Shown here one piece after another: positions 26,989 through 59,819 of a DNA stretch of 64,000 bases; positions within the stretch are counted from its first letter, which is position 1; the number at the start of each line of letters is the position of its first letter. The notes beneath the pieces were generated by a model, which was not told where the DNA came from, did not search any database, and saw only the letters and a list, made by a program, of their open reading frames with translations. The DNA lies in assembly GCA_003139795.1 (NCBI GenBank), contig PLGM01000350.1:10160-74159 (forward strand), given 5' to 3'. A program made the translations under genes and the position numbers. The DNA is from Acidobacteriaceae bacterium (GTDB lineage Bacteria > Acidobacteriota > Terriglobia > Terriglobales > Acidobacteriaceae).

Positions 26989-28482
26989 CTATTGAATGCC
27001 GAGGTCGGAAAGAACCTTGGGCTTGGCTTCGTCCACGGCCAGCAGGTTGTGGCAGGCGGCGCAGTCCTGGGTGATGCTGGTGCCGTCCTTGGCCACGTGG
27101 TCGCCATCGTGGCAGCGGAAGCAGCCCGGATAGCTCATGTGGCCGATGTGGTTGGGGTGGGTACCCCAGGTCACCTTCATAAAAGGAAACACGTTCTGGG
27201 TATAGAGAGACAGCAACTCATCGCCGGCGGATTTGACAAGCGCGGCTTTGGCGGCCAGGACCTCAGGATGCTGGGAGCGATAGAAGGCTTGAAGCTGCTG
27301 TGGAATCTGCGTGCTCGCTTCGGCCTCGGAGGCGTAGGTGGCATTGAGCAGCTCCAGGCCCTCCTTGTGAACCCAGGGCAGATCCGGACTGACCGCGCCT
27401 TCGGCCATGGCCCGGTTGAGCGCGTCTTCCGCGGTCACAAAGGTGTGCGCGGCGCGGTTGTGGCAATCAATGCAATCCATCACCCGCCGTTCCCCCTGGG
27501 GAACGCCGTTGCCCGCGGCGGCCGTGGCAAACGCGGTCTCCGAGCCATCCGGGTTGCGCTTCTGTACCCAGGGGATGGTGGTGCGGGTTGGGTCGGTGGC
27601 GACGTACTCGATGTGGCCCAGGTGAGTGCCGTGAATCCCGCTCAGTTGGGAGAGCGAATCCCGGCCGCCCAGGTGCAGAACCACCACCGTCTGGGTCTCG
27701 GTGTTCTTCTCATCGTCGGCAAAGCTGGACTTCACCAGGAGCTTTTCGCCGACAAACCGGGCCGGCGTGTGGCAGCCCTCGCAGATATACCGCGCGGGGC
27801 GCAGATTCTCGACCGGCGAAGGAATCGGAGTGGGATAGCGATCGAAGCTGACCTCAAGAAGCTGCCTGGTGCCGTTCACCTTGGCGGCAAAGTAGGATGC
27901 CGCGCCCGATCCGATGTGGCAGGCGACGCAGTCCACATGGGAGTGCGCGGAAATCTTGTAGGCTGTGTACTCCGGATGCATGACGTGGCAGGACTGGCCG
28001 CAAAACTGCGGGGAGTCCATGTAGGCCGAACCGCGATAGCTGGCCATGGCCACGACCAGCAGGTTGACGATAGTGGCCACCAGCACGATATCCAGGCCGT
28101 GGCGAAAGACCCGGTCGTTGAGATCGATCTTGGGGAATTCGGCGGGAATCTGCCCGGCTTTCTGGAGCTTTCTGCGGCGCACAAACACGCCCACCGGGAT
28201 CAGCGCCAATCCGGCTATGAACAGAGCGGGCAGAAGCAGGAAGAAGATGATGCCGAGGTAGGGGTTGTCATTGGGGCGGCCGAAGATCTCGACCAGCCAA
28301 TAGCCGATCATGGTCACGCCAGCGGCGCTGGTGATGGCGCCGCCTGCCAGACTGACAGGGTTGTTGCCGAAGAACAGAGCCGGGCGCACCCAGCTCTCGC
28401 GGAATTTTTGAAGCAATGGCACCTTTGTCCCCCACACTGATTGGATGGCCCGCCAGTGGGAGCGGAAACCCGATTTCGGCAC
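26989..28482 (-). CDS. membrane-anchored multihaem c-type cytochrome, NapC/NirT-like region (ImcH-like architecture)
   Basis: 497 aa with three predicted N-terminal TM helices. One CX3CH site (CGQSCH) and five CXXCH sites (CVACH, CEGCH, CIDCH, CFRCH, CAACH). GTG start. Last gene of the cytochrome cluster. Confidence 0.75.
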   Translation of the reverse strand: MPKSGFRSHWRAIQSVWGTKVPLLQKFRESWVRPALFFGNNPVSLAGGAITSAAGVTMIGYWLVEIFGRPNDNPYLGIIFFLLLPALFIAGLALIPVGVFVRRRKLQKAGQIPAEFPKIDLNDRVFRHGLDIVLVATIVNLLVVAMASYRGSAYMDSPQFCGQSCHVMHPEYTAYKISAHSHVDCVACHIGSGAASYFAAKVNGTRQLLEVSFDRYPTPIPSPVENLRPARYICEGCHTPARFVGEKLLVKSSFADDEKNTETQTVVVLHLGGRDSLSQLSGIHGTHLGHIEYVATDPTRTTIPWVQKRNPDGSETAFATAAAGNGVPQGERRVMDCIDCHNRAAHTFVTAEDALNRAMAEGAVSPDLPWVHKEGLELLNATYASEAEASTQIPQQLQAFYRSQHPEVLAAKAALVKSAGDELLSLYTQNVFPFMKVTWGTHPNHIGHMSYPGCFRCHDGDHVAKDGTSITQDCAACHNLLAVDEAKPKVLSDLGIQ

Positions 28483-28598: not shown

Positions 28599-28916
28599 CT
28601 ACTTGAGCCCGCGATAGTAAGCCACCGCGTCCTTGATCTGCTGATCGGTGAGTCCCGCGACCGGCTTCATCTTGTTCTTGCCGTTCTTGACGACGGCAGC
28701 CATCTGGTCGGCGGTAAGCTTCTGGATATCCGGATCGGAAACCGGCTTCACACCCATCATCTTGGCGATCCCCGGACTGGGGGTGCCGGCGGAGCCGTGG
28801 CAACTTTGACACTTGGCCTTGTAAGTCGCTTCGCCGCCGGATTGGGCGAGGCACACGGCGCTGGCCAGAGAAACAACAACGGCCAGGACCACCTGGGATC
28901 GAATCGTCTTTGTCAT
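28599..28916 (-). CDS. monohaem class I c-type cytochrome (copy 2)
   Basis: ATG 28916 follows AAGGAG. Signal peptide MTKTIRSQVVLAVVVSLASAVCLAQ, single CQSCH site, distal Met region GKNKMKP. Confidence 0.85.
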   Translation of the reverse strand: MTKTIRSQVVLAVVVSLASAVCLAQSGGEATYKAKCQSCHGSAGTPSPGIAKMMGVKPVSDPDIQKLTADQMAAVVKNGKNKMKPVAGLTDQQIKDAVAYYRGLK

Positions 28917-29109
28917 TGCGATACTCCTTGAGTATTTCCACGGCCAGCGCGCCTGGGGACGCGCCTGCTGGGTGGAGTTGTTCCTGCTACCCAACCCCAG
29001 GCTACAACTTGTCAGTCGCCCGGAGCAGCAATCAAGATGGCAGCCAAAGCCATCTCAAACAGATCGACGCAATTCCCTTCGCAAATCCGGGAACTGCGCC
29101 AATGGTTCC

Positions 29110-29433
29110 TCACTTGATGAGCGTGCGGAAGTAGGCCACCGCGTCCTTGATCTGCGCGTCGGTGAGTTTGCCCTTGAACGGCTGCATCTTGCCCATGCCG
29201 TTCGTGGTGGCGTCGATCATCCTGTCCTCGGCGAAATTCTTGACGTCCGGATCGGTGACCGGCTTCACCTTCAAGGCTTTGCCTGCGGTCGTGTCGGCGA
29301 GGCCGGTGGCGCCATGACAGCTTTGGCACTTGGCTTTGTAGGTCGCTTCGCCCGGCGACTGGGCAAAGCCCACGGCGCCAGCCAAAGAAACAACCACGGC
29401 CAGCACCACCTGGGATCGAATTGTCTTTGTCAT
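29110..29433 (-). CDS. monohaem class I c-type cytochrome (copy 1)
   Basis: Signal peptide MTKTIRSQVVLAVVVSLAGAVGFAQ, CQSCH, GMGKMQP. The N-terminal ~40 aa are nearly identical to copy 2. Confidence 0.85.
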   Translation of the reverse strand: MTKTIRSQVVLAVVVSLAGAVGFAQSPGEATYKAKCQSCHGATGLADTTAGKALKVKPVTDPDVKNFAEDRMIDATTNGMGKMQPFKGKLTDAQIKDAVAYFRTLIK

Positions 29434-29647: not shown

Positions 29648-32242
29648 TCAGAACTCGTAATGCAGTCCAATGGTCACGTTATTCGCATGAAAGTTCCGGG
29701 GTGCGGTCAGACCGGAAGACGATTCGGTTAGACCGGTCTGTTCGGGCAGAGAGGTGCAAGGTACAACCGTTGACGTCAGAGACGTTGAAGTGCTGCAGTC
29801 CTGCGGGCCGGAAGGACCGCCCTCGCCGTAGCCGTAGTAATTGTATTCCGCTTTCCAAATCCATCCAGGATGGATCGTCCACGCAACATTCACAAAGGGA
29901 GACTCATACTTGGAGTCGAGCGAGCCGTTGACCGATCGCGCATCGGTGAAAAACTGATTGCCGCTCACATCGCTCATGCGATAGCCAATATTGGAGTGGA
30001 ACGATTTGACGGGGGACAGCGCGAGAGCCACCGACGCGTACTGCGTAGGAGCATCCATGAAGTCCCTGCCAAACCAGTCCGCGAGTTGGGTCGTCGACCC
30101 CCTGGAGAACACGCCTGGGCATACATTCGGCCCGCCGCTGCTGTTGGTCGAGGCAGTGCCGGGCAAAGTGGCCGAAGCGCCACTGTCAAAACAGATGTTG
30201 GTCGCCGCATACACATCGCTATAGGCGTAATTGAAATCGAACCCATAGCGCTCATTCGGCATCAGCACCGCGCCCAGGCTCACAATCCGGCTGTGATCGA
30301 CATGGTCGATCGGGCCCTCGTACGGATCATCGCCTGCTGCGACGGCGGCCCCGTTGTTGTTGGTGTTGTTGTGCCGTTCCAGGTCGTTCCAGGCGCCCGA
30401 CAGCGTCGCCCAGGGCTTTGGCCTGTACAGGGTATGCACTCTGTAGTGCCTGGTTTGCCGCGGACCGACCGGGGTGAATGCATTGTCGGCGTAGAGCGCC
30501 TCGACCGTGCCATTGACATCCCAATTGGCGGTGGGCCGCACGGCGGCGTTGAAGATTCCACCGTCTTCGTTGATGGTTACGGTTCCGTTTGACGTGGCAC
30601 CCACGGCTAATGGAACGTTATGAGGACTGCCCTGGGCGATGGTGTGCTTGCTGTGGCGATAGGTGAGCGAGAGCGTGGCGCGAGACGCGGCATCCCAGGT
30701 CCCCGTCAAGTTATTGGTCAGGAAGTTCTGGCCAAAGTAGCCCGGCAGGGGGGTGCCGATGACGCCGCTGCCTTCAAAAGTGGAGGCGCCGGCGGCGGCA
30801 GCGGTCGTGGTCAACCCACCTGCGTAGTTGATGGTTTCATTTCCCGCGGTCGCGGGCGTCGACAGAGTGGTCCCACTCGTCATGGTGGTGGTTCCCGGTT
30901 GGTGGACGCTGGAGAAGTCCACCTGTTCGGAGAGACTGAACGTCCTCATAGCCTGCCACACGAACCCATAGTCGGCGGCTACGACCTCGCGCTTTGCGGT
31001 GCCGGTGGCCGTATACGTAAGCGAGCGCGTCGTCCCATTAAGACCCTGGTAGCTGTCGTAGTAGTTGGGCAGGTTCATATTCGCTTTGGTATAGCGCAAA
31101 TCGCCATTCATCGAGACGTTCTTGATGCTGGAGCTTTGCAACCGGAAGATCTCCGTGGGATAGAGAATGCGGGTCGGCTGCGAGCGCAGGTAGTTGGTAA
31201 CCACGGCGCATGCCGCATTGATGACCGGCAGGCCACCGGCGGTTGGCGACGCCGAGAGGATGGGAGTGGCGCCTATGCTGTTTGCATTGCAGGCACTGCT
31301 GGGGTAGGGCGTCCGGCTGTCAAAATCGTCAAGGGCCGCCGGTGTTCCGTCCGCCTCTTGCACGTTGAAGTCGCCGGGGGCCATGGTAAAGTAGGAGTCC
31401 GCCTTGTAGTGGTCGATCTCCTCTTCAAAGGTCAACCTGGTGCCCTGCACGGGCTTCCAGTCGATCCCCCCCGTGAAGTCGTCGGTGCTGTTGCGCTGAT
31501 ACTCCTGGAGCACGGCATCGTACTTGGCGAATTGATAACCGCTTGGGCTCAGGCTCGGTCCCTGGAAGATGTTCTGTGAGTACCCCGCCCGAAACGTCAC
31601 CTTCGAAATCGGAAAGATCGTGAGGTTGGTGTCCGTCATGCGGCGCACCGTGTTGTACTGCACCGGCGATTGTTCCACCTGCGGCCAGGCAAACGAACCG
31701 GTTGGCGCGGCGGAGGGTCCGATGGGAATCGACTGCCCCCCGGGGATATTGGGGTTGCCCAGCAGGTCGTAGTCGAAGTACTGGCGGTCGCGGCGAAACA
31801 TTCCCGAGAACTCGTAGATCTTGCCCTTGGAGAAGTCCAGCTTGGTGAAGCTGTTCGGATCGCCGCCGAACCCGCTGCCGATAGCACTGAGCGAATCGAT
31901 AAGCGTGTTCTTCTTGCCCGGGAGCGCGCGCATTTCAAAGGTCTCGCCAAGCACGCGCGGCCCGGACTGCATATTGACCAGCGTGTCGTACATGGCCCCG
32001 CTGCCCGCGACGCCGGTTATGCGGCCACCCAGATCCACGCTCTGATGGATCGTATACCCATTCGGGGCAGCGATCTGTGCCTCCGGCGTCGGCGATGGGG
32101 TGGCGGGCGTCGGATTTTGAGCGACGGCGATGCCCGCCGTCATCAGTAAAATGACGATTCCAATGCTCCCAGCGGTGCGCTGAATCATTGCGATAGATGG
32201 CTGTTCTTTGGACAGCCGAGAAAACCAGCCTGTCTTCTTCAT
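29648..32242 (-). CDS. large outer-membrane beta-barrel protein, MtrB/MtoB/PioB-like porin partner of the decahaem cytochrome
   Basis: ~865 aa with no haem motifs. Signal peptide ...IGIVILLMTAGIAVAQ (the start may be 32242 or 32188). Amphipathic beta-strand pattern throughout, with an OMP-type C-terminus ...VTIGLHYEF. It lies immediately downstream of the decahaem gene. Confidence 0.7.
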   Translation of the reverse strand: MKKTGWFSRLSKEQPSIAMIQRTAGSIGIVILLMTAGIAVAQNPTPATPSPTPEAQIAAPNGYTIHQSVDLGGRITGVAGSGAMYDTLVNMQSGPRVLGETFEMRALPGKKNTLIDSLSAIGSGFGGDPNSFTKLDFSKGKIYEFSGMFRRDRQYFDYDLLGNPNIPGGQSIPIGPSAAPTGSFAWPQVEQSPVQYNTVRRMTDTNLTIFPISKVTFRAGYSQNIFQGPSLSPSGYQFAKYDAVLQEYQRNSTDDFTGGIDWKPVQGTRLTFEEEIDHYKADSYFTMAPGDFNVQEADGTPAALDDFDSRTPYPSSACNANSIGATPILSASPTAGGLPVINAACAVVTNYLRSQPTRILYPTEIFRLQSSSIKNVSMNGDLRYTKANMNLPNYYDSYQGLNGTTRSLTYTATGTAKREVVAADYGFVWQAMRTFSLSEQVDFSSVHQPGTTTMTSGTTLSTPATAGNETINYAGGLTTTAAAAGASTFEGSGVIGTPLPGYFGQNFLTNNLTGTWDAASRATLSLTYRHSKHTIAQGSPHNVPLAVGATSNGTVTINEDGGIFNAAVRPTANWDVNGTVEALYADNAFTPVGPRQTRHYRVHTLYRPKPWATLSGAWNDLERHNNTNNNGAAVAAGDDPYEGPIDHVDHSRIVSLGAVLMPNERYGFDFNYAYSDVYAATNICFDSGASATLPGTASTNSSGGPNVCPGVFSRGSTTQLADWFGRDFMDAPTQYASVALALSPVKSFHSNIGYRMSDVSGNQFFTDARSVNGSLDSKYESPFVNVAWTIHPGWIWKAEYNYYGYGEGGPSGPQDCSTSTSLTSTVVPCTSLPEQTGLTESSSGLTAPRNFHANNVTIGLHYEF

Positions 32243-32369: not shown

Positions 32370-33344
32370 CTACCTGAGGAACGCCGCATTCACGTTTGAC
32401 CCATGAATATAGGTGTGGCAGCTGATGCATGGCGTGATCTCCGACGATCCTGCGCTCATCGAGTGCACCGTGCCGGCGGCGACCGGGCTATGGCACTGGT
32501 TGCACAACGTGTTGATATTCGGCATGTTCAGCAGCCGGGCGTTCTGAGAACCATGCGGCGTGTGGCACCCCAGGCACCCCTCCGCCTTGACCGCGGCGTG
32601 CTCGTACACATAAGGCCCACGCACCTCCATGTGGCACTTGGTGCAGATCATATTCTGATCGGCCGTGGACTTCAGGTTGTTGTTCCCGAAGGTGCCGTGC
32701 GGGTCGTGGCAATCGGAGCACTGCACCAGGCCCTCGTTGACCTTGTGGTGGAAGGGCATACTGAACGCCGGCTTCACGTCGGTGTGGCACTGATAGCAGA
32801 GCGTCGGCTGAGGAGCCTTGAGGAGAGATTCCTCCTTGCTGCCGTGGATGTCGTGGCAGCCGATGCAGCTGACGCCGCCCTTGGCATGAGGAGAACGATC
32901 GAAGTTCGGATGCGCTCCCGCGTGGCAGCCCAGGCACTTGGCGGTCACGTCTTTGGCCGAAGCCTTGGCGGGATCGAAGATCTTGGTCACGTCCCCGCCG
33001 CCTTCAACGTGTGCGCCGCCCGGACCGTGGCAACCTTCGCAGTTCACGCCGGCCGCGCCGTGCTGTGCTGCAAGCTTGGTGTGCGGATTGTCCGCAAATT
33101 TCTTGCTCACCTCTTCATGGCAGGTAGCGCAAATGTCACCTCCCACATAGGCGCTCGGAGCCGCGTCCTTGGCCTGCGCGGCGGCCGCTTTGGCGCCAGA
33201 TTCGGCTTTGGGCCCCTGAGCGCCAAAAGCAGTGGCGCAGGCTATGCTCGCGCCCAGCATCAACATCAAACAAGCTCGCAGCCCCGGCCGCTTTCCCGGA
33301 GCCGCACCAATCGGCAATCGCGTTACAGGCCCATCACTATGCAT
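32370..33344 (-). CDS. periplasmic decahaem c-type cytochrome, MtrA/MtoA/PioA/DmsE family
   Basis: Ten CXXCH motifs (CATCH, CEGCH, CLGCH, CIGCH, CYQCH, CSDCH, CTKCH, CLGCH, CNQCH, CISCH) in ~324 aa. Signal peptide from ATG 33344. C-terminus CHTYIHGSNVNAAFLR. The size and motif spacing fit the family. Confidence 0.85.
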   Translation of the reverse strand: MHSDGPVTRLPIGAAPGKRPGLRACLMLMLGASIACATAFGAQGPKAESGAKAAAAQAKDAAPSAYVGGDICATCHEEVSKKFADNPHTKLAAQHGAAGVNCEGCHGPGGAHVEGGGDVTKIFDPAKASAKDVTAKCLGCHAGAHPNFDRSPHAKGGVSCIGCHDIHGSKEESLLKAPQPTLCYQCHTDVKPAFSMPFHHKVNEGLVQCSDCHDPHGTFGNNNLKSTADQNMICTKCHMEVRGPYVYEHAAVKAEGCLGCHTPHGSQNARLLNMPNINTLCNQCHSPVAAGTVHSMSAGSSEITPCISCHTYIHGSNVNAAFLR

Positions 33345-33541
33345 GAAAAATACCGCCTTGGATGCTCTTGTTGCATCTTCTGAAAACCACTGGGCCGGCA
33401 ATATGCCGGCCAGATATGGCAACTCCCACCTGGGAAGCGCCGCATCGAGAATCGGTTCTTCGGACCGCAATTTCCAGAAGCTGCTCTTTGTGCGGAGCAT
33501 CACTTCATGCGCGCATCCTACGTTTTATTTGCGCCGCGAAC

Positions 33542-33557
33542 GGTGACGTTCGTCACA
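33542..33557. promoter_or_regulatory. CRP/FNR-type box GGTGA-CGTTCG-TCACA upstream of the decahaem operon
   Basis: 9/10 match to TGTGA-N6-TCACA. On the minus strand a TAGGAT -10-like hexamer (33515-33520) lies 32 nt from the box centre, which is class II (-41.5) geometry. Confidence 0.5.
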
Positions 33558-33922
33558 GATAATGGAGAGACCAACTTACGGCTTCGGTTTCCTGCCCCAA
33601 TGTGACCGGGATTTCCATCGGCGCACAAGTCATTAAACGCGCTCAGGGCGATCCATAACCCTGGCGCACATGCATTTCCCTTGGGTGGGGGCAGGACCGG
33701 CTGAAATGCCGGAAAATCCCCCTTCGCAGTTCAACAGCAAAGTGGCTGTGCCGCTGTATAAGACTGATCACCTTTCTTGAATCAGGCAACGGTTGGCGGA
33801 AGTGTGGGACCTGGTCCGGCTTGGGGAGCTGCAAGCGTACTTTGGCGCTCAATCGAAGCGGGATCCAGCGCAGGCGCTTGACGCTCCACGGGGAAATCCG
33901 CAGCCTGCGTGGATTCAATTAG

Positions 33923-33940
33923 ATGTGAGGCCCATCACAT
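33923..33940. promoter_or_regulatory. perfect CRP/FNR-type palindrome ATGTGA-GGCCCA-TCACAT upstream of the Crp/Fnr gene
   Basis: 10/10 match to TGTGA-N6-TCACA, extended to 6+6. It lies 155 nt upstream of ATG 34095. Confidence 0.5.
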
Positions 33941-34094
33941 CCACGGGGGTAGCTGCTCGGGCAAACTTTGATGGAGCAAGAGCCTCTCTTCCGGGAGACG
34001 CAGGGCATTTTCCTCTCAGCTTGAGCCCTTGCGGCGTCTGCGGGGTTCAGCAGAAGGCGGTGGGGAAGGAGCTCGAACGGGGGTCGGAAGGGGC

Positions 34095-34853
34095 ATGACC
34101 ATGGCAAGCGCTGAGATCACGGCAGGAGCGCACGTGCGGCAGAAGCACCTTATCCGGCAGGTACCTGCGGGTTGTGCGGCCTGCGCCAATCGCCGCCCCG
34201 GCTGGTTCTGCTCCCTGGGCAGCTCGGTACTGGCGGATCTTGAGCTGGCCACCAGCACCATCGCCCTTCCCGCGCAAGCTCCGCTCTTCAATCAGGGCGA
34301 GGATGCGCGCTGCCTGTATCTGATCTGCGACGGCTATCTCAAGCTGACGGCCGGCCGCGTTGAGGATCGGCAGATGATCGTCCGCATCGCCGGACCCGGC
34401 TCCATGCTCGGCCTGTACGCGGTTCTCTCCCATGGTGTGTATGAGGTCTCCGCCGAGTCCTTGACCAGCGCGCAACTGCGGCCCGTGGAGCGGGACCGGT
34501 TCCTCAGCTTCCTGCGCAGCCACAAGGAGGCGCAGATGCGGGCTGTTCAGTGCATCTGTCAGGAGTACCGCTTCGCCCTGCAGGACGCCTGCCGGATCGC
34601 GCTGGCCGAGACCGTGGCCGCGCGGCTGGGAAAGCTGCTTCTGGAGCTGGCCCAACAGATTGGGGAACACCTGAACGGTGGGGACTACCGCTTCCCGCTG
34701 CTTCTGACCCACGAGGAGATGGCCTCCATGACCTGCACCACGCGGGAAACCGTAACCCGCACCCTGGGCCAGTTCCGCAAGGAGGGTTGGATTTCGATCG
34801 AAGACTCCCTGGTGACCCTTCACCAGCCGGAACGGCTGCAAACGCTGCTCTAG
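34095..34853 (+). CDS. Crp/Fnr family transcriptional regulator with N-terminal Cys motif
   Basis: cNMP-binding-like beta-roll (LFNQGEDARCLYLICDGYLKL). C-terminal HTH MTCTTRETVTRTLGQFRKEGWI. N-terminal CAACANRRPGWFC (C-x2-C-x8-C). ATG follows GGAAGGGG. Confidence 0.85.
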   Translation: MTMASAEITAGAHVRQKHLIRQVPAGCAACANRRPGWFCSLGSSVLADLELATSTIALPAQAPLFNQGEDARCLYLICDGYLKLTAGRVEDRQMIVRIAGPGSMLGLYAVLSHGVYEVSAESLTSAQLRPVERDRFLSFLRSHKEAQMRAVQCICQEYRFALQDACRIALAETVAARLGKLLLELAQQIGEHLNGGDYRFPLLLTHEEMASMTCTTRETVTRTLGQFRKEGWISIEDSLVTLHQPERLQTLL

Positions 34854-52775: not shown

Positions 52776-52789
52776 TTGCCGGATGCGAT

Positions 52790-52820
52790 CACCGGGGTGG
52801 AAAGGAAATCCACCCCGGTG
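52790..52820. terminator. 12-bp-stem hairpin between convergent CRTAC1 and usp genes
   Basis: CACCGGGGTGGA (52790-52801) pairs with TCCACCCCGGTG (52809-52820); 7-nt loop. Confidence 0.55.
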
Positions 52821-52829
52821 GTTGTGATT

Positions 52830-53789
52830 CTAAAAAACGCCGGCCATATAGACTTCAGCCGAACGATGCTTTTCCGCCTTCACGCCGCACTCGGCCAGCA
52901 CTACGGGCGACAATGTGATCACCGGGCAGTGGGTGTGGGCCAGTACCTTGTAGACCACGCCGTGGCGGGTGATGGCGGCAAAGGCCGATGCACCCTGCGC
53001 GCCCAGCACGATCAGATCCGCCTGCTGGGCTCTGCCCTGGTAGAGAAGTTCCTCAGTCGGATCGCCGGGCACCACGATGGTCTGCACGGCAATCTTTCTC
53101 AGCAACTCGGGCGGAATCAGCGCCAGAAGATCGGCCTCAACCTGATCGATCGAGCGGCCGGCGAGGACCTCGGCGCGCTCCTGGGGCCGGATCACATGCT
53201 GCAGGATCAGGCGGGCGTTGTGCTGAGCAGCGAGTTCCGCGGCAAAGGTGGCCACCATATAGCTCGCGTCCTGGAGGCTCACGGCGCACAGGATGGTGCG
53301 GGTGGCAAAGTTGCGGTAGGCGCCCTCGACCACCTCGGGGCCGACGATGTAAACCGGAACTCTGGCGGTGCGGAGCACGGCCTCGGCCACCGAGCCCACC
53401 AGGAGCTTGCCGATGGGACCGGGAGAGTGAGTGCCCATGACCACGCGGTCGATCGCGCGCTCGCGCAGGAAGGCGAGGATCTGGTCCGCGGGCAATCCAG
53501 GCCTGACGACGATTTCGCATCGGATGCCAGCCTCGCGCGCGCGCTGAGCAAAAGGTTCAAGGCCCTGCATTTCGGCATGGGCGGCTGCGGCATAGTCGTA
53601 GTAACGGATACCCGAGGTCTCCGATGCGGCCACTACCAGAGTGTCATAGGCGTGAAAGAGGATGAGATCGGCGCCAAATTCGGCGGCCTGCGCCAGAGCG
53701 AAGGCGAAGGCCTTTTCATTGGCGGGAATCTCGGAGGCGAAGAGGATGGTGGAGGGTTTACTCCAACCTGGCTTGATTACGGCTGCCAT
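52830..53789 (-). CDS. tandem universal stress protein (two Usp domains)
   Basis: 319 aa with two UspA-like halves (ILFASE... / ILCAVS...; GTHSPGPIGKLLVGSVAEAVLRTARVPVYIV). Confidence 0.85.
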   Translation of the reverse strand: MAAVIKPGWSKPSTILFASEIPANEKAFAFALAQAAEFGADLILFHAYDTLVVAASETSGIRYYDYAAAAHAEMQGLEPFAQRAREAGIRCEIVVRPGLPADQILAFLRERAIDRVVMGTHSPGPIGKLLVGSVAEAVLRTARVPVYIVGPEVVEGAYRNFATRTILCAVSLQDASYMVATFAAELAAQHNARLILQHVIRPQERAEVLAGRSIDQVEADLLALIPPELLRKIAVQTIVVPGDPTEELLYQGRAQQADLIVLGAQGASAFAAITRHGVVYKVLAHTHCPVITLSPVVLAECGVKAEKHRSAEVYMAGVF

Positions 53790-53863
53790 GGGAACCTCCT
53801 GGAGGTGCGACAGAATGTTAGAAGGGCCGCCACCGGATTACGGTGCCCGGTGGCACAGGTCGG

Positions 53864-53879
53864 CGTGATCTAAATCACG
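53864..53879. promoter_or_regulatory. CRP/FNR-type box CGTGA-TCTAAA-TCACG upstream of usp
   Basis: 8/10 match to TGTGA-N6-TCACA with perfectly symmetric GTGA/TCAC cores. On the minus strand CGTAAT (53837-53842) lies 32 nt from the box centre, which is class II geometry. Confidence 0.45.
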
Positions 53880-54041
53880 TCTGGAGCGTACGGGGGCCGG
53901 TTTCCGGCGGACCGGGAGCCATGTTTCGATCAGTAAAAACACAGGTTCCAAACTAATCGTTCAATCGCACGGAATGGCGCGCCTTTTGCGGGAAGTGGTC
54001 GAAAGGGAGATAACGGCGAAGCTGTGGATTGAGCGAGATGA

Positions 54042-54057
54042 AGTGATCCCAATCACA
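54042..54057. promoter_or_regulatory. CRP/FNR-type box AGTGA-TCCCAA-TCACA upstream of the radical SAM gene
   Basis: 9/10 match to TGTGA-N6-TCACA. It lies 232 nt upstream of ATG 54282, in a 490-nt non-coding gap. Confidence 0.4.
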
Positions 54058-54281
54058 GCCTGCCCTGCGTCTGGGCTGCTCTTCTGGAGCGGAATCGTGG
54101 CGCTCCAGAGTGGTTTTCCAATTCATGGGGCCCTGCCGGATGGTTGCAAGATGGTAACCCCTCCATGGGGAAATCATCTTATCGGCAGGGTCTTAGCTTT
54201 CTTTAATAATTGGAAAATCGCTCCATCCCCGGCGCAGGACCGGCTTCAGGACCGGCCAGCCGCGATTCACGTGGAGGCCTC

Positions 54282-55502
54282 ATGGAACCGATGCACAATA
54301 TTCCCGCCCGTGGCGGGTTGAACTTCGACGAGACCCCGTTTCTGGCCATCTGGGAGGTCACCCAGTCGTGTGACCTGGCCTGCAAACATTGCCGGGCGGC
54401 CGCCCAACCGATCGCTCATCCCGATGAGTTGACGAACGCGGAGGGGAAGGCGCTGATCGACCAAATCGCCGCGATGCACGTGCCGATTTTCGTGTTTACC
54501 GGCGGGGATCCATTGAAACGAAAGGACGTATTCGAGCTGATCCGCTACGCCGCGGACAAGGGCGTGCAGGTGGCGCTGACGCCGAGCGCAACGCCGCTGC
54601 TGACGCGGGAGGCCATTTTCAAGCTGAAAGAGGCCGGTCTGGTGCGGCTGGGCATCTCGCTGGACGGCTCGACGCCGGAGATTCACGACGCGTTCCGGGG
54701 CCTTCCCGGCGCGTGGGCGCGGACCATCCAGGCCATCGAGTGGGCCAACGAGGCGGGCATTCCGATCCAGGTGCATTCCACCATCAGCCGCCATAACGCG
54801 CACGATCTGGATAACTTATGCGCCTTGTTTGAAAAGCTGGCCATCGTGATGTGGAATGTGTTTTTCCTGGTTCCGGTGGGGCGCGGACAGATCGCCGACC
54901 TGCTTTCAGGCGAGGAATTCGAGCAGGTGTTCGGCAAAATCTATGAGTTGAGCCACCGGGTGAGCTTCCAGATCAAGACCACGGAGGCCATGCACTACCG
55001 GCGTTACCTCCTCCAGCACAACCTTGAAGAGCGGAAGATGGGGCACGGAAGCGGCCACCCTCACGCCGCTGCAGCCGCCCACAAATACGAGCCCGGCGCG
55101 CCCACGGCTGACGCCAAAACGCGCACCGCGAGCTGGGCCACGCGGCGCGTGAACGACGGTAAGGGATTCATGTTCATTTCCCACGTGGGCAACGTGTATC
55201 CGAGCGGGTTTCTGCCCATCCACGCCGGCAACATCCGCGAAACCCCGCTGGCCGAAATCTACCGCGAAGCGCCCATCTTCAAGTCGTTGCGCGATACCAG
55301 CAAGCTCGAAGGCAAGTGCGGCGCCTGCGAGTACAAGGAGATCTGCGGCGGTTCCCGCGCCCGCGCCTATGCCCTCACCGGCGATCCGCTGGCCGAGGAG
55401 CCGTGCTGCATCTATCAGCCGAGGAACTGGGACCCGGAGTTAGAGCAGAAGGCCGACGCCTTCCGCCACCTGGAGCCCTCCCAGACCCTGGTCGCGCTGT
55501 AG
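54282..55502 (+). CDS. radical SAM/SPASM domain protein (AhbD/NirJ-like class)
   Basis: CDLACKHC (CX3CX2C) near the N-terminus. C-terminal SPASM Cys cluster CGACEYKEICGGSRARAY...EPCCIY. ATG follows GGAGG. Confidence 0.85.
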   Translation: MEPMHNIPARGGLNFDETPFLAIWEVTQSCDLACKHCRAAAQPIAHPDELTNAEGKALIDQIAAMHVPIFVFTGGDPLKRKDVFELIRYAADKGVQVALTPSATPLLTREAIFKLKEAGLVRLGISLDGSTPEIHDAFRGLPGAWARTIQAIEWANEAGIPIQVHSTISRHNAHDLDNLCALFEKLAIVMWNVFFLVPVGRGQIADLLSGEEFEQVFGKIYELSHRVSFQIKTTEAMHYRRYLLQHNLEERKMGHGSGHPHAAAAAHKYEPGAPTADAKTRTASWATRRVNDGKGFMFISHVGNVYPSGFLPIHAGNIRETPLAEIYREAPIFKSLRDTSKLEGKCGACEYKEICGGSRARAYALTGDPLAEEPCCIYQPRNWDPELEQKADAFRHLEPSQTLVAL

Positions 55503-55540
55503 GCGCTGGCAGAAGCGGTCGAAAGGCCTGTGAAATGAGA

Positions 55541-55588
55541 GCCGGGCTTGGAAGCCGGGGACTAAAGTCTCGGACTTCCAAGCCCGGT
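55541..55588. terminator. 13-bp-stem hairpin between convergent radical-SAM and cydB genes; the loop carries a REP-like GGGGACTAAAGTC core
   Basis: CCGGGCTTGGAAG (55542-55554) pairs with CTTCCAAGCCCGG (55575-55587). Confidence 0.55.
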
Positions 55589-55618
55589 TCCACTTCAAAT
55601 ACGCTTTCCGGCCGGCTT

Positions 55619-56662
55619 TCAGTGGCTGGTGGAAGTCAGATCGACTTTGCCGCGGAATCTGGTGTAAACGAAGACGACGTAACCGACGGCCAGCGTCATT
55701 CCGAAAGCCCACCACACCAGTCCCACTGCCAGCGTATGCGGCCCGGAAATCGCCTTGGCCATTGTGATGTCGCGCTCAACACCTGTCGAGGCGGGCAGCA
55801 GCGTGGGATAAAGGCCCCAGCAGGCTCCGGCCAGCATGAAGAAGAGATAGAGGCAGGATGAGAGGAAGGCCTTGACGGGCTGGGCGTTTCTGTTGAAGAG
55901 CCAGATGCCGGCCAGGGAGGCGACGACGCCCACGGGAACGACGACTGTAAACGGGTAGTTGAAGTAGTTGTCCAGGCTGGCCGGGCGCACGTGGATGGTG
56001 GCGCCGAGGCTGATGACGGTGAGAACCGCCAACTGGATGCAAACCGGGCCGACGATGCGGCGGGCGCGGTCGGCGAGCTCGCCAGAGGTCTTGATGGTGA
56101 GCCAGAGAGCTCCGTGGAGCGTGAGCGCGACCAGGGCGACGATGCCGCCGATAACCGTGTACCAGTCGAGAATGCCGGGATGGGGACCGGTCTCCCAGTT
56201 GGTCCACAAGGGCAGGAAGAAGTAGCCGTCGGCCTGGAGAGGAACGCCGCGCAGGACGTTGGCGAGGGCGGCTCCGAAGAAGACGGCGAGCAGGGCGCTG
56301 GAGAGGCCGAAGACGCCGTCGAGCAGCGCGCGCCATACGCCTACGTCGATGTGGTTGCGAAGCTCGACGCTGATGCCGCGCAGGACCAGGAGCCAGAGCA
56401 CGATCATGAGAGGCAGATAGAAGCCGCTGAAGGCCGAGGCGTAGAGGAGCGGAAAGGCGAAGTAGAGGGTGCCGCCGCCGGCCAGCAGCCAGACTTCGTT
56501 GCCGTCCCAGACTGGGCCGATGCTGGCGAGGGTAACGCGGCGGTCGGCTTCGGTGCGAACGAGGAAGAGATGGAGTACGCCGACGCCCAGGTCGAAGCCG
56601 TCGAGCACGACGTAGGCGACGATCATTACGGCGACCAGCCAGAACCAGATGAAACCCATCAT
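55619..56662 (-). CDS. cydB: cytochrome bd ubiquinol oxidase subunit II
   Basis: MMGFIWFWLVAVMIVAYVVLDGFDLGVGVLHLF...GPVWDGNEVWLL is canonical CydB. ATG follows AAGGAG. Confidence 0.9.
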   Translation of the reverse strand: MMGFIWFWLVAVMIVAYVVLDGFDLGVGVLHLFLVRTEADRRVTLASIGPVWDGNEVWLLAGGGTLYFAFPLLYASAFSGFYLPLMIVLWLLVLRGISVELRNHIDVGVWRALLDGVFGLSSALLAVFFGAALANVLRGVPLQADGYFFLPLWTNWETGPHPGILDWYTVIGGIVALVALTLHGALWLTIKTSGELADRARRIVGPVCIQLAVLTVISLGATIHVRPASLDNYFNYPFTVVVPVGVVASLAGIWLFNRNAQPVKAFLSSCLYLFFMLAGACWGLYPTLLPASTGVERDITMAKAISGPHTLAVGLVWWAFGMTLAVGYVVFVYTRFRGKVDLTSTSH

Positions 56663-56708
56663 GGGAAACTCCTTTTTCTTCAGGCCTGCAAAGGGAGGGC
56701 GGTGATTG

Positions 56709-58055
<1,347 letters not shown>

Positions 58056-58185
58056 GGAGGAGCTCCTGTTTCAAGCGGCAGCGCAAAAAGTGGAAAAGGC
58101 TGCACTTGCCGGGCGCGCCGCAGGCTTGGAGCGGCGGGAAATCTGCAGGGAAGCGGCGGAAAACCCGGGCTTCACAGTGCTCTTT

Positions 58186-58203
58186 ATGTGATTTAAATCA
58201 CAT
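58186..58203. promoter_or_regulatory. perfect 18-bp palindrome ATGTGATTTAAATCACAT (CRP/FNR-type box) between cydA and hemY
   Basis: 10/10 match to TGTGA-N6-TCACA. ~139 nt from the cydA start and ~134 nt from the hemY start. TATGAT (58222-58227) lies 30 nt from the box centre on the hemY side. Confidence 0.5.
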
Positions 58204-58328
58204 GCAACACAGAGCCATCTCTATGATTCTAATTCTGCAAGGGGCGATTTTTCATTGAATTTGGAAGTTTCCCGCCGATGGACGCGCGTCGAGCTGGGAG
58301 CTGCTGTAATGATGGGGTGGAGTGAGCG

Positions 58329-59819
58329 ATGCGGACGGCGATCATTGGCGGTGGCATAGCGGGCTTGGCGGCTGCCTTTGAGATGGAAAAAGCGCGCGCG
58401 GCGGGCGCGGCAGTGGAGTACACGCTGTTTGAGGCGCGGGACACGCTGGGCGGTTGCTTGAGCTCGGAAGTGGTGGACGGCGCAGTCCTGGAGCGGGGAC
58501 CGGATTCGTTTTTGACCGAGAAACCGGCGGCCACGGAGTTGTGCCGGGAGCTGGGACTCGCGAGCGAACTGCTGCCCTCGAACGATGCGGCGCGCAAGAC
58601 CTATATTTTGGTGAAGAACCGGCTGGTGGCGCTGCCCGACGGGCTGATGTTCCTGGTGCCCACCAAGCTGATTCCGACGGCGCTCACACGGCTGTTCAGC
58701 CTGACCACTAAATTGCGGATGGGGCTGGAACTGCTGCACCCGCCGCGGCCAGGCGGGCAGGCGGACGAGGCGGTGGCGACGCTGGTGGAGCGGCACTTTG
58801 GCGCCGAGGCCGTGGACCGGCTGGCCGATCCGCTGCTGAGCGGGATTTACGGCGGGGATGCGGCGCAACTGAGCGCCCGGATGGTGCTGCCGCGGCTGGT
58901 GGAGATGGAGAGCGAGTACGGTTCGCTGACGCGGGGGATGCTGGCGGCGCATCGCAAGATGCGGGCCAGGGCCAGGGAAGCCGCGAAAAAGCCGGGGACG
59001 GCGAACGGCAAGGTCAATCGGCAGGCTGCCGGGAACGGACGGCCGGCGGCGCGGGCGATCTTTACGGCGCTGCGGGGCGGAATGGCGCAGTTGATCGGGG
59101 CTCTGGAGGCGCGGCTCGACCCGGCCTGGGTGCGGCGTTCGACGCCGGTGAGCGGGCTGGAAAAGGTGGTGGACGGCTGGAGGGTGGAGGCCGACGGAGC
59201 AGCGGAAATTTTCGATGCGGTGATTGTGGCCTCGCCGGCGTGGGCGGCGGGCGTGCTGCTGGGGCCGGTGGACGCGGCGCTGGGCGAGGATCTGAGCTCC
59301 ATTCCCTACTCTTCTTCGATCACGGTGAACTTGATTTATGACGAGGCCAGGCTGGGCCGGCTGCCGGATGGGTTCGGTTTTCTGGTTCCGGCCAGCGAAG
59401 GCCGCGCGATGCTGGCCTGCACGTTTGTGCATCGCAAATTTCTGGGGCGGACTCCGCCGGGGAAAGCGGTGCTGCGGGCCTTCCTGGGCGGGATGAAAAA
59501 CGAGGCCCTGCTGGCGGAGACGGACGCCGCGCTGGTGGCCACCGTGCGGAGGGAGTTGGCTTCCATTCTGGGCGAGGACGTGGTTGGACAGGGGGTCGAG
59601 CCGGAGCATACGCAGGTTTCGCGCTGGCGGCGGGCGATGGCGCAGTACGCCGTGGGCCACCAGGAGCGGGTGCGGCGGATCGCCGCGCGGGTGGCTGCGC
59701 TGCCGGGGCTGCGGCTGGCGGGAAACGCTTACGACGGCATCGGGATTCCCGACTGCATTCGGCTGGGACGGTTGGCGGCGCGGGAGCTGCTGGCAGCAAC
59801 TACCGACGTTAATATTTAG
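58329..59819 (+). CDS. hemY: protoporphyrinogen/coproporphyrinogen III oxidase (HemY/CgoX type, FAD)
   Basis: MRTAIIGGGIAGLAAAF...ARDTLGGCL...GPDSFL, and C-terminal GNAYDGIGIPDCI. Confidence 0.85.
   Translation: MRTAIIGGGIAGLAAAFEMEKARAAGAAVEYTLFEARDTLGGCLSSEVVDGAVLERGPDSFLTEKPAATELCRELGLASELLPSNDAARKTYILVKNRLVALPDGLMFLVPTKLIPTALTRLFSLTTKLRMGLELLHPPRPGGQADEAVATLVERHFGAEAVDRLADPLLSGIYGGDAAQLSARMVLPRLVEMESEYGSLTRGMLAAHRKMRARAREAAKKPGTANGKVNRQAAGNGRPAARAIFTALRGGMAQLIGALEARLDPAWVRRSTPVSGLEKVVDGWRVEADGAAEIFDAVIVASPAWAAGVLLGPVDAALGEDLSSIPYSSSITVNLIYDEARLGRLPDGFGFLVPASEGRAMLACTFVHRKFLGRTPPGKAVLRAFLGGMKNEALLAETDAALVATVRRELASILGEDVVGQGVEPEHTQVSRWRRAMAQYAVGHQERVRRIAARVAALPGLRLAGNAYDGIGIPDCIRLGRLAARELLAATTDVNI

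Follow-up and report, generated by a model that had tools for sequence, protein, structure and literature searches.

A conserved four-cysteine Crp/Fnr-type regulator and its predicted operators beside an acidobacterial decahaem cytochrome operon

We analyzed a 64,000-nucleotide stretch of DNA from an Acidobacteriaceae bacterium (hereafter, the window) and, within it, a gene for a regulator of the Crp/Fnr superfamily that is divergent from an operon headed by a decahaem c-type cytochrome. The region between the two carries two palindromic boxes, Box 1 next to the cytochrome operon and Box 2 next to the regulator gene. Both are linked to the regulator in related loci and stand at a constant spacing from candidate -10 elements, and the regulator itself has four conserved cysteines and a conserved recognition helix. 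On balance, we lean towards a model in which the regulator is an activator with an iron-sulfur (Fe-S)-type centre held by its four cysteines, acting from a class II position at Box 1 and driving positive autoregulation through Box 2.

Conservation of the regulator and its boxes

The genes and boxes at the centre of this analysis are as follows.

34101..34853, plus strand: Crp/Fnr-family regulator of 250 amino acids, matching Pfam cNMP_binding (PF00027), HTH_Crp_2 (PF13545) and Crp (PF00325), all above cut-off; an alternative ATG at 34095 is not conserved
32370..33344, minus strand: DmsE/MtrA-family decahaem c-type cytochrome, first gene of the target operon (TIGR03508, 258 bits against a cut-off of 192)
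33542..33557, strandless: Box 1, GGTGACGTTCGTCACA, predicted operator of the cytochrome operon promoter, conserved in 71 loci
33923..33940, strandless: Box 2, ATGTGAGGCCCATCACAT, predicted operator of the regulator's own promoter, conserved in 76 loci

The second ATG, 34101, is the most likely start of the regulator, because most of its homologues have 250 amino acids and the other genomes have a consensus of AAG at position 34095. For the decahaem cytochrome, a start at GTG 33503 was rejected because the segment 33345-33480 is poorly conserved and contains indels. The most likely start is therefore 33344, which makes the divergent region 756 bp long and not 590 bp, the length given by an earlier reading made from the letters of the window alone (the sequence-only reading).

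That reading had described a perfect ATGTGA-N6-TCACAT at 33923-33940 and a GGTGA-N6-TCACA at 33542-33557, and both were found in the sequence. Within the window the 18-bp form ATGTGA-N6-TCACAT occurs twice (0.00 expected), TGTGA-N6-TCACA with at most one mismatch occurs four times (1.02 expected), and the core GTGA-N6-TCAC occurs six times (0.52 expected), a number that none of 100 shuffles attained. The boxes are far beyond what chance would give. Five of the six cores are intergenic, which agrees with the five boxes counted before; the sixth, at 29255, lies inside a cytochrome gene, where it encodes VKPVT, and we took it for a coincidence of the coding sequence.

The regulator is 100% identical to a homologue in a Terracidiphilus metagenome-assembled genome (MAG) from the SPRUCE peat experiment, and it has orthologues with 84-92% identity in about 80 other Terracidiphilus and Acidobacteriaceae genomes. 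We fetched 80 loci around regulator orthologues, one genome per species, and found the divergent arrangement of regulator and cytochrome operon in about 75 of them. No other gene of the locus is as well conserved as the regulator (84-92% identity, compared with 44-96% for the decahaem cytochrome and 27-85% for the 864-amino-acid protein encoded next in the operon).

For footprinting we used 77 intergenic regions, i.e., those of 76 related loci and that of the window. Box 1 is present in 71 of these, about 205 nt from the decahaem ATG (in a few, the computed distance is 92-129 nt), and Box 2 in 76, about 167 nt upstream of the regulator ATG. The eight core bases of both boxes are invariant across the loci, in surroundings that are only about 40-60% conserved; the spacer of Box 1 is free to vary, and that of Box 2 is partly variable (GGCCCA in most loci). 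The motif across loci is nGTGAnGnnCnTCACn, so that the outermost T and A of the CRP consensus are not required. In 911 kb of related loci, a position weight matrix (PWM) of the boxes found just three sites of at least 12 bits outside the two conserved positions.

Locus L163, which encodes a 65%-identical homologue flanked by genes for an Rrf2 regulator and a response regulator, has a perfect box, ATGTGAGACAAATCACAT, 171 nt upstream of that homologue. Because Box 2 is kept there despite the unrelated neighbours, it belongs to the regulator gene and not to the cytochrome operon. Loci without the decahaem and barrel genes still have both boxes. Taken together, these alignments support the view that the regulator and the boxes are a conserved unit.

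Promoter geometry

Each box has a candidate -10 element on the side of the gene that it is predicted to control.

33515..33520, minus strand: predicted -10 hexamer TAGGAT of the cytochrome operon promoter, its first base 29.5 bp from the centre of Box 1; predicted start site near 33508
33962..33967, plus strand: CAAACT, candidate -10 of the regulator promoter, with A2, A4 and T6 each above 95%; predicted start near 33973-33974

A TAGGAT on the cytochrome side of Box 1 had been noticed in the sequence-only reading, and it is indeed there, running from 33520 to 33515 on the minus strand. Measured from the centre of Box 1 toward the cytochrome operon, a TAnnnT lies at 29.5 bp in 16 loci and at 30.5 bp in 53, i.e., in 69 of 71. 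The first T, the A and the last T of the hexamer are each above 95% in the alignment and the internal bases vary (TAATCT, TAGGAT, TACGAT); because only T, A and T are kept, the hexamer has the conservation pattern of a -10 element. The 20-odd bases between it and Box 1 are not conserved, and there is no self-sufficient -35/-10 promoter anywhere in the intergenic region. The centre of Box 1 falls at -41.5 or -42.5 only if transcription begins about 7 nt after the hexamer. The TAnnnT spacing and the missing -35 in the aligned sequences support the class II promoter that had been proposed for the decahaem operon, in which Box 1 would be at an activator position, with the start near 33508 standing as a prediction.

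On the regulator side, the distance from the centre of Box 2 to a conserved CAnACT block is 29.5-31.5 bp, and mostly 30.5 bp. If CAAACT is the -10 of the regulator promoter, as we think it may be, this alignment suggests class II positive autoregulation via Box 2. That the perfect box serves autoregulation had been put forward already, and it gains support from loci such as L163, in which Box 2 accompanies the regulator gene in other surroundings.

The operon leader contains a hairpin and U-tract that resemble a terminator (33411..33393, minus strand), but the hairpin is present only in the window and in its closest relative, L001, the locus of the identical regulator, and not conserved elsewhere; we set it aside as due to chance or specific to the strain. 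Neither leader contains essentially any conserved RNA structure (RNAalifold, with 67 and 77 sequences), and a search of Rfam gave no match with an E value below 0.4.

A third conserved element

The best-conserved non-coding sequence of the region, above either palindromic box, is an asymmetric 16-mer.

33489..33504, minus strand: third conserved element, AGTGATGCTCCGCACA, at about +4..+19, 10-11 nt after the -10 of the cytochrome operon

The sequence AGTGATGCTCCGCACA is identical in 53 of the 77 loci and has at most two mismatches in 71, spacer included, and it occurs once in the window. Its core, GTGA-N6-GCAC, shares seven of the eight core bases of the boxes, and its score with the PWM of the boxes is only 4.2 bits. 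Its centre is 53-55 bp, or five helical turns, from that of Box 1. The 16-mer has no match in Rfam and takes no part in conserved RNA structure. A mini-open reading frame across it (ATG AAG TGA) was rejected, the ATG not being conserved (e.g., in L009, L010 and L011). The element may serve as operator for some second factor, as a site from which the regulator represses, or as a signal at the RNA level. Its strong conservation implies that the promoter does more than one-site activation and leaves room for repression or a second factor; the simple activation scheme of the sequence-only reading, in which the element had been missed, stands only in part.

It would be possible to build on this element a scheme in which the regulator mainly represses the cytochrome operon, its dimers on Box 1 and on the third element bracketing the -10 and the start site, and loss of the cofactor relieving the repression. 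The shared core bases, the spacing between the two centres with the -10 in between, and the very strong conservation of the element are all in its favour, and CRP bound downstream of a promoter can repress (PMC10187061). We nevertheless consider such a scheme improbable. There is no -35/-10 promoter able to fire without an activator, and the spacing from Box 1 to the -10 is constant within 1 bp while the intervening sequence drifts, which argues for a site that contacts RNA polymerase. The third element, with its low PWM score, its asymmetry and its fixed spacer, is unlike a dimer site, and this points to a different factor. Finally, the regulator's own promoter has the same spacing without the third element.

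Family placement and DNA reading

The regulator belongs to the Crp/Fnr superfamily by its three Pfam domains, by the layout of its AlphaFold2 (AF2) model (a beta-roll, a long dimerization helix and a C-terminal helix-turn-helix, with a predicted local distance difference test score, pLDDT, of 88.6 overall) and by fold matches with template modeling (TM) scores of up to 0.89. No NCBIfam equivalog reaches its cut-off (PtrA, 59 versus 300 bits; CRP, 43 versus 266; Fnr (NF008365), 27 versus 228). The nearest solved structures, by sequence and fold alike, are Mycobacterium tuberculosis CRP and Corynebacterium GlxR (E value 1e-21, TM 0.78-0.89), whereas FNR is remote, with a PDB match at an E value of about 1e-6 and a place outside the top 50 fold matches. 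By these measures of sequence and modeled fold, the protein body is closer to actinobacterial CRP and GlxR than to FNR.

This does not make it a cyclic AMP (cAMP) receptor. At the cAMP contacts that we tested (E72, R82-S83), FGE...PRTSSA of M. tuberculosis CRP pairs with LGL...VYEVSA, with Glu replaced by Leu and Arg-Thr by Tyr-Glu. Because the phosphate-binding signature is lost (GE...RT(S) becoming GL...YE), identity with a cAMP-dependent CRP was rejected.

The part of the protein predicted to read DNA is the following.

34743..34760, plus strand: recognition-helix core R215-E216-T-V-T-R220, in line with the CRP RETVGR rule for TGTGA

R215, E216 and R220 are invariant in an alignment of 40 relatives down to 30% identity, and [ST]RETVTR prevails in the 150 best 50%-identity representatives listed. 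In CRP, R180, E181 and R185 read TGTGA, and by this rule the RE...R helix fits the GTGA core of the boxes (PMC10187061); the CRP-like recognition helix proposed from the sequence alone was therefore well founded. Both the helix and the TGTGA-N6-TCACA palindrome agree with CRP. They do not agree with FNR, which has VETISR instead of RETVTR and, instead of GTGA-N6-TCAC boxes, TTGAT-N4-ATCAA, read by Glu209, Ser212 and Arg213. Nor is the ligand set of FNR (Cys20, Cys23 and Cys29, spaced C-x2-C-x5-C, and Cys122 of the beta-roll, close to helix B; PMC4672761) reproduced, and the C-terminal cysteines of a Bacillus-type Fnr are absent, there being no Cys after C212 and the C-terminus reading ...PERLQTLL. 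Since it departs from FNR in ligand set, box and curated model, from cAMP-CRP in cAMP contacts and curated model, and from Bacillus Fnr in the C-terminal cysteines, the protein would represent an uncharacterized four-Cys subfamily of Crp/Fnr proteins. In open-access papers and bioRxiv preprints we found no characterized member of this subfamily, and no account of the regulation of acidobacterial extracellular electron transfer (EET) clusters.

Four conserved cysteines

The cysteines that define the subfamily are in the N-terminal arm and in the beta-roll.

34173..34211, plus strand: N-terminal Cys triad C25-x2-C28-x8-C37 (CAACANRRPGWFC), invariant in 120 of 120 close homologues
34326..34328, plus strand: Cys76 (ICDGY, beta-roll), candidate fourth ligand, present in 120 of 120 close and 98 of 112 distant homologues

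The Cys motif GCAACANRRPGWFC and the helix TTRETVTRTL are both encoded, as had been stated, within the open reading frame that ends at 34853. We compared this frame with a distant set, made up of the 111 full-length sequences among the 150 best 50%-identity representatives listed. The pattern C-x2-C-x(5-10)-C occurs in 68 of the 111, with the x8 spacing in 65 of these 68, and all four cysteines occur together in 73 of 112 distant homologues. Cys76 was present in 73 of 74 sequences with a complete triad versus 25 of 38 with an incomplete one (Fisher p = 1.7e-6, not corrected for phylogeny).

We also aligned profiles with E. coli FNR using hhalign; the FNR sequence used agrees with the residue numbers of PMC4672761. 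The cysteine motif had been called FNR-like, and for the C-x2-C this is apt, with C25 aligned to FNR Cys20 and C28 to Cys23. It is not apt for the remainder, as C37 lies three residues beyond Cys29 and FNR Cys122 pairs with a Leu, and Cys76, which pairs with FNR Arg72, had been overlooked. On these alignments an Fe-S/O2 sensor is plausible, and it is somewhat strengthened by the fourth cysteine and by the content of the putative regulon described below.

The cysteines might have another function. A C-x2-C with two more cysteines is also a typical Zn pattern, and the arrangement in this protein is compatible with a Zn site. The DNA architecture and the activator role could thus be as we propose, with the cysteines binding structural Zn, working as a thiol-disulfide switch (as in CprK and FLP), or holding a cluster that reports nitric oxide (NO) or iron/Fe-S status. 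The x8 spacing, and C76 at the place of FNR Arg72, match neither FNR nor the C-terminal site of Bacillus Fnr, and 38 of 112 relatives lack the complete triad and retain the fold and the helix. Iron status would moreover be a sensible signal, if the target operon handles iron or humic redox chemistry. We rate this family of explanations as rather unlikely, though the most serious of those that we considered. An N-terminal C-x2-C arm aligned with FNR Cys20/Cys23 has an Fe-S precedent in the superfamily (PMC4672761), and the other boxed genes are classic low-oxygen targets, i.e., bd oxidase and an oxygen-independent radical-SAM haem enzyme. The strict co-variation of the four cysteines fits a tetra-coordinated centre, although it does not separate Fe-S from Zn.

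Other boxes in the window

Three further boxes lie in the window away from the divergent region.

58186..58203, strandless: perfect box, ATGTGATTTAAATCACAT, flanked by cydAB on the minus strand and a protoporphyrinogen-oxidase-like gene on the plus strand
53864-53879 and 54042-54057, strandless: two boxes upstream of a TIGR04053 radical-SAM/SPASM gene related to AhbD, with PWM scores of 14.1 and 13.4 bits

The AhbD-like gene scores 487 bits with TIGR04053 (cut-off 395), and locus L042 has the same box with the same spacer after its homologue of orf365. An exact core is found no more than 400 nt upstream of cydA in 33 of 73 metagenome loci, where we estimate chance to account for about 1% per locus. 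Among closer relatives, with a cydA of 83-94% identity, the box is usually about 125-170 nt from the cydA ATG, and in the window it is 139 nt away. The box-linked genes are a typical low-oxygen set, which fits the idea of an O2- or redox-responsive regulator and supports it indirectly.

Together these genes and boxes make up a compact cluster at 52776-59819: orf365, two boxes and the TIGR04053 gene, then convergent cydB and cydA on the minus strand, the perfect box, and the protoporphyrinogen-oxidase-like gene. The cluster has the look of an island for haem and for respiration at low oxygen. In more distant Acidobacteria (L130-L160, with a cydA of about 73% identity), a TGTGA-N6-TCACA box is mostly 41-46 nt upstream of the cydA start, a layout unlike that in the window.

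These boxes raise the question of whether another CRP-type protein, e.g., a true cAMP receptor, serves them all, the regulator beside the cytochrome operon having other targets and its adjacency being a coincidence. Helices of the [ST]RETVTR type are widespread, and since Acidobacteria also have GTGA-N6-TCAC boxes elsewhere in front of cydA (41-46 nt from its ATG), more than one such factor may exist. Even so, we find this explanation very hard to credit. The distance of Box 2 from the regulator ATG is held in 76 loci and in the homologue with unrelated neighbours, the regulator is the most conserved gene of its locus, and the 64-kb window contains no second Crp/Fnr gene.

Farther afield, locus L164 has the sequence TGTGACACGTATCACA at 7188-7203, between genes for a fatty-acid desaturase and the small subunit of a NiFe hydrogenase, and near a 38%-identical four-Cys homologue, P0141; the upstream region of P0141 itself contains no box. 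As to the signal, we looked for clues in the genes around distant homologues (sugar and amino-acid genes for P0148, NrfD and Fer4 for P0127, NiFe hydrogenase for P0141) and discarded them as too few and too mixed.

Proposed mechanism

In the activator model that we favour, the gene at 34101-34853 would encode a dimeric Crp/Fnr-type factor, which would read GTGA-N6-TCAC with R215, E216 and R220 of its C-terminal helix; we infer that this is the protein that binds the boxes, and that it activates rather than represses. Bound at Box 1, about 41.5-42.5 bp upstream of the operon start, it would substitute for the absent -35 and recruit RNA polymerase in the class II manner, and binding at Box 2, at an equal distance from its own promoter, would provide positive feedback. 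Its activity would probably be set by a cofactor on C25, C28 and C37 of the N-terminal arm and C76 of the beta-roll, for which an Fe-S cluster labile to oxygen or NO is the most likely candidate. Low oxygen would in this way switch on the electron-export operon, probably together with cydAB, the protoporphyrinogen-oxidase-like gene and the AhbD-like oxygen-independent haem enzyme.

Several points weigh against this model. The Cys pattern is unlike that of every characterized Fe-S protein of the Crp/Fnr type (x8 and not x5, and no Cys at the position of FNR 122), the four cysteines could equally hold Zn or form disulfides, and the AF2 model of the N-terminal arm (residues 21-40) has a pLDDT of only 66-75. 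CAAACT makes a weak candidate -10 for the regulator. The 16-mer, which is the best-conserved element of the cytochrome promoter, is outside a simple activation model and could mediate repression. Lastly, RETVTR helices are common enough in the superfamily that a paralogue could serve some or all of the boxes, especially those at cydA.

A wider proposal can be made, which we advance only tentatively. The regulator could belong to a large and so far unnamed four-Cys clade of the Crp/Fnr superfamily, found mainly in Acidobacteriota, in which a redox-labile centre formed by the C-x2-C-x8-C arm and a Cys of beta-strand 3 sits on a CRP/GlxR-like body whose DNA specificity is of the CRP type. In Terracidiphilus of peat it might then be a master switch for EET, bd oxidase and anaerobic haem synthesis, with a second factor or an RNA-level signal acting through the 16-mer.

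Comparison with known systems

The regulator combines features of several known proteins. FNR of E. coli and Aliivibrio fischeri is an oxygen sensor with an N-terminal [4Fe-4S] cluster, which in E. coli FNR is oxygen-labile and governs dimer formation and the binding of DNA. With these proteins the regulator shares the superfamily fold, an N-terminal C-x2-C arm, four conserved cysteines, a predicted class II site and targets of the low-oxygen type. E. coli FNR differs, however, in having its third Cys after x5 instead of x8 and its fourth at position 122, an ETISR helix, and a TTGAT-N4-ATCAA box. The RE...R-type helix and the TGTGA-N6-TCACA-type box are those of M. tuberculosis CRP (Rv3676) and GlxR, although the latter proteins bind cAMP and have neither the N-terminal Cys arm nor Cys76. 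Mycobacterial Crp is reported to induce cydAB as well (PMC7739888). Bacillus subtilis Fnr provides a precedent for an Fe-S oxygen sensor that reads TGTGA-N6-TCACA, but its cluster is held by the C-terminal Cys227, Cys230 and Cys235 and by Asp141, whereas the cysteines here are N-terminal and in the beta-roll and the protein ends in ...RLQTLL. Desulfovibrio HcpR1 is a Crp/Fnr protein that binds TGTGA-N6-TCACA and controls its own gene, and further sites for it are predicted in front of respiratory (nap) genes (PMC5701242); unlike the low-oxygen role proposed here, its function is tied to the nitrosative-stress response.

As to the target, the cAMP-dependent CRP of Shewanella oneidensis directly activates the promoter of omcA-mtrCAB, a cluster that contains MtrA, from class I positions at -61.5 and -60.5 (PMC4417206). 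The two cases are alike in that a Crp-family activator and a CRP-type site are found at an EET cluster; they differ in that the acidobacterial locus has a dedicated, adjacent, Cys-bearing protein and a predicted class II position, and in phylum. The operon resembles a module of the MtrAB/PioAB/MtoAB type in its decahaem component, its putative porin partner having no family match. MAGs of Terracidiphilus and related Acidobacteriaceae have already been counted as carriers of EET genes (PMC12285243, PMC3669403).

Peat and acidic soils count Terracidiphilus and related Acidobacteriaceae among their most abundant bacteria, and the conserved unit of regulator, operator and promoter provides a first testable model for how extracellular respiration is switched on in the Terracidiphilus group. 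FNR-like control of anaerobic respiration would not be deeply surprising to specialists. If the model is correct, though, the cysteines would constitute a third ligand arrangement among Crp/Fnr sensors, distinct from both known Fe-S solutions, and DNA reading of the CRP type and sensing of the cluster type would have been joined more than once.

Operon genes and their neighbourhood

The operon to the left of the divergent region consists of five genes on the minus strand, for the decahaem cytochrome, the 864-amino-acid protein, two monohaem c cytochromes and a NapC/NirT-like protein. Those downstream of the decahaem gene are as follows.

29648..32242, minus strand: 864-amino-acid protein in the porin-partner position, C-terminus ...HYEF, found in most related loci
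29110-29433 and 28599-28916, minus strand: monohaem c cytochromes (Pfam Cytochrome_CBB3), synteny conserved
26989-28482, minus strand: NapC/NirT-like multihaem quinol dehydrogenase (Pfam Cytochrom_NNT), synteny conserved

The 864-amino-acid protein has no Pfam or NCBIfam match, MtrB_PioB included; the hints of an outer-membrane barrel are its position and its C-terminal ...HYEF. Its sequence varies far more than those of the neighbouring gene products. Between the window and L001, for example, it is 81% identical, compared with 100% for the regulator and 96% for the decahaem cytochrome. The protein may be a porin that is exposed at the surface and evolves fast.

The two monohaem cytochrome c genes (28599-29433) are paralogues, 61-64% identical, and several related loci apparently have only one detectable copy at that place.

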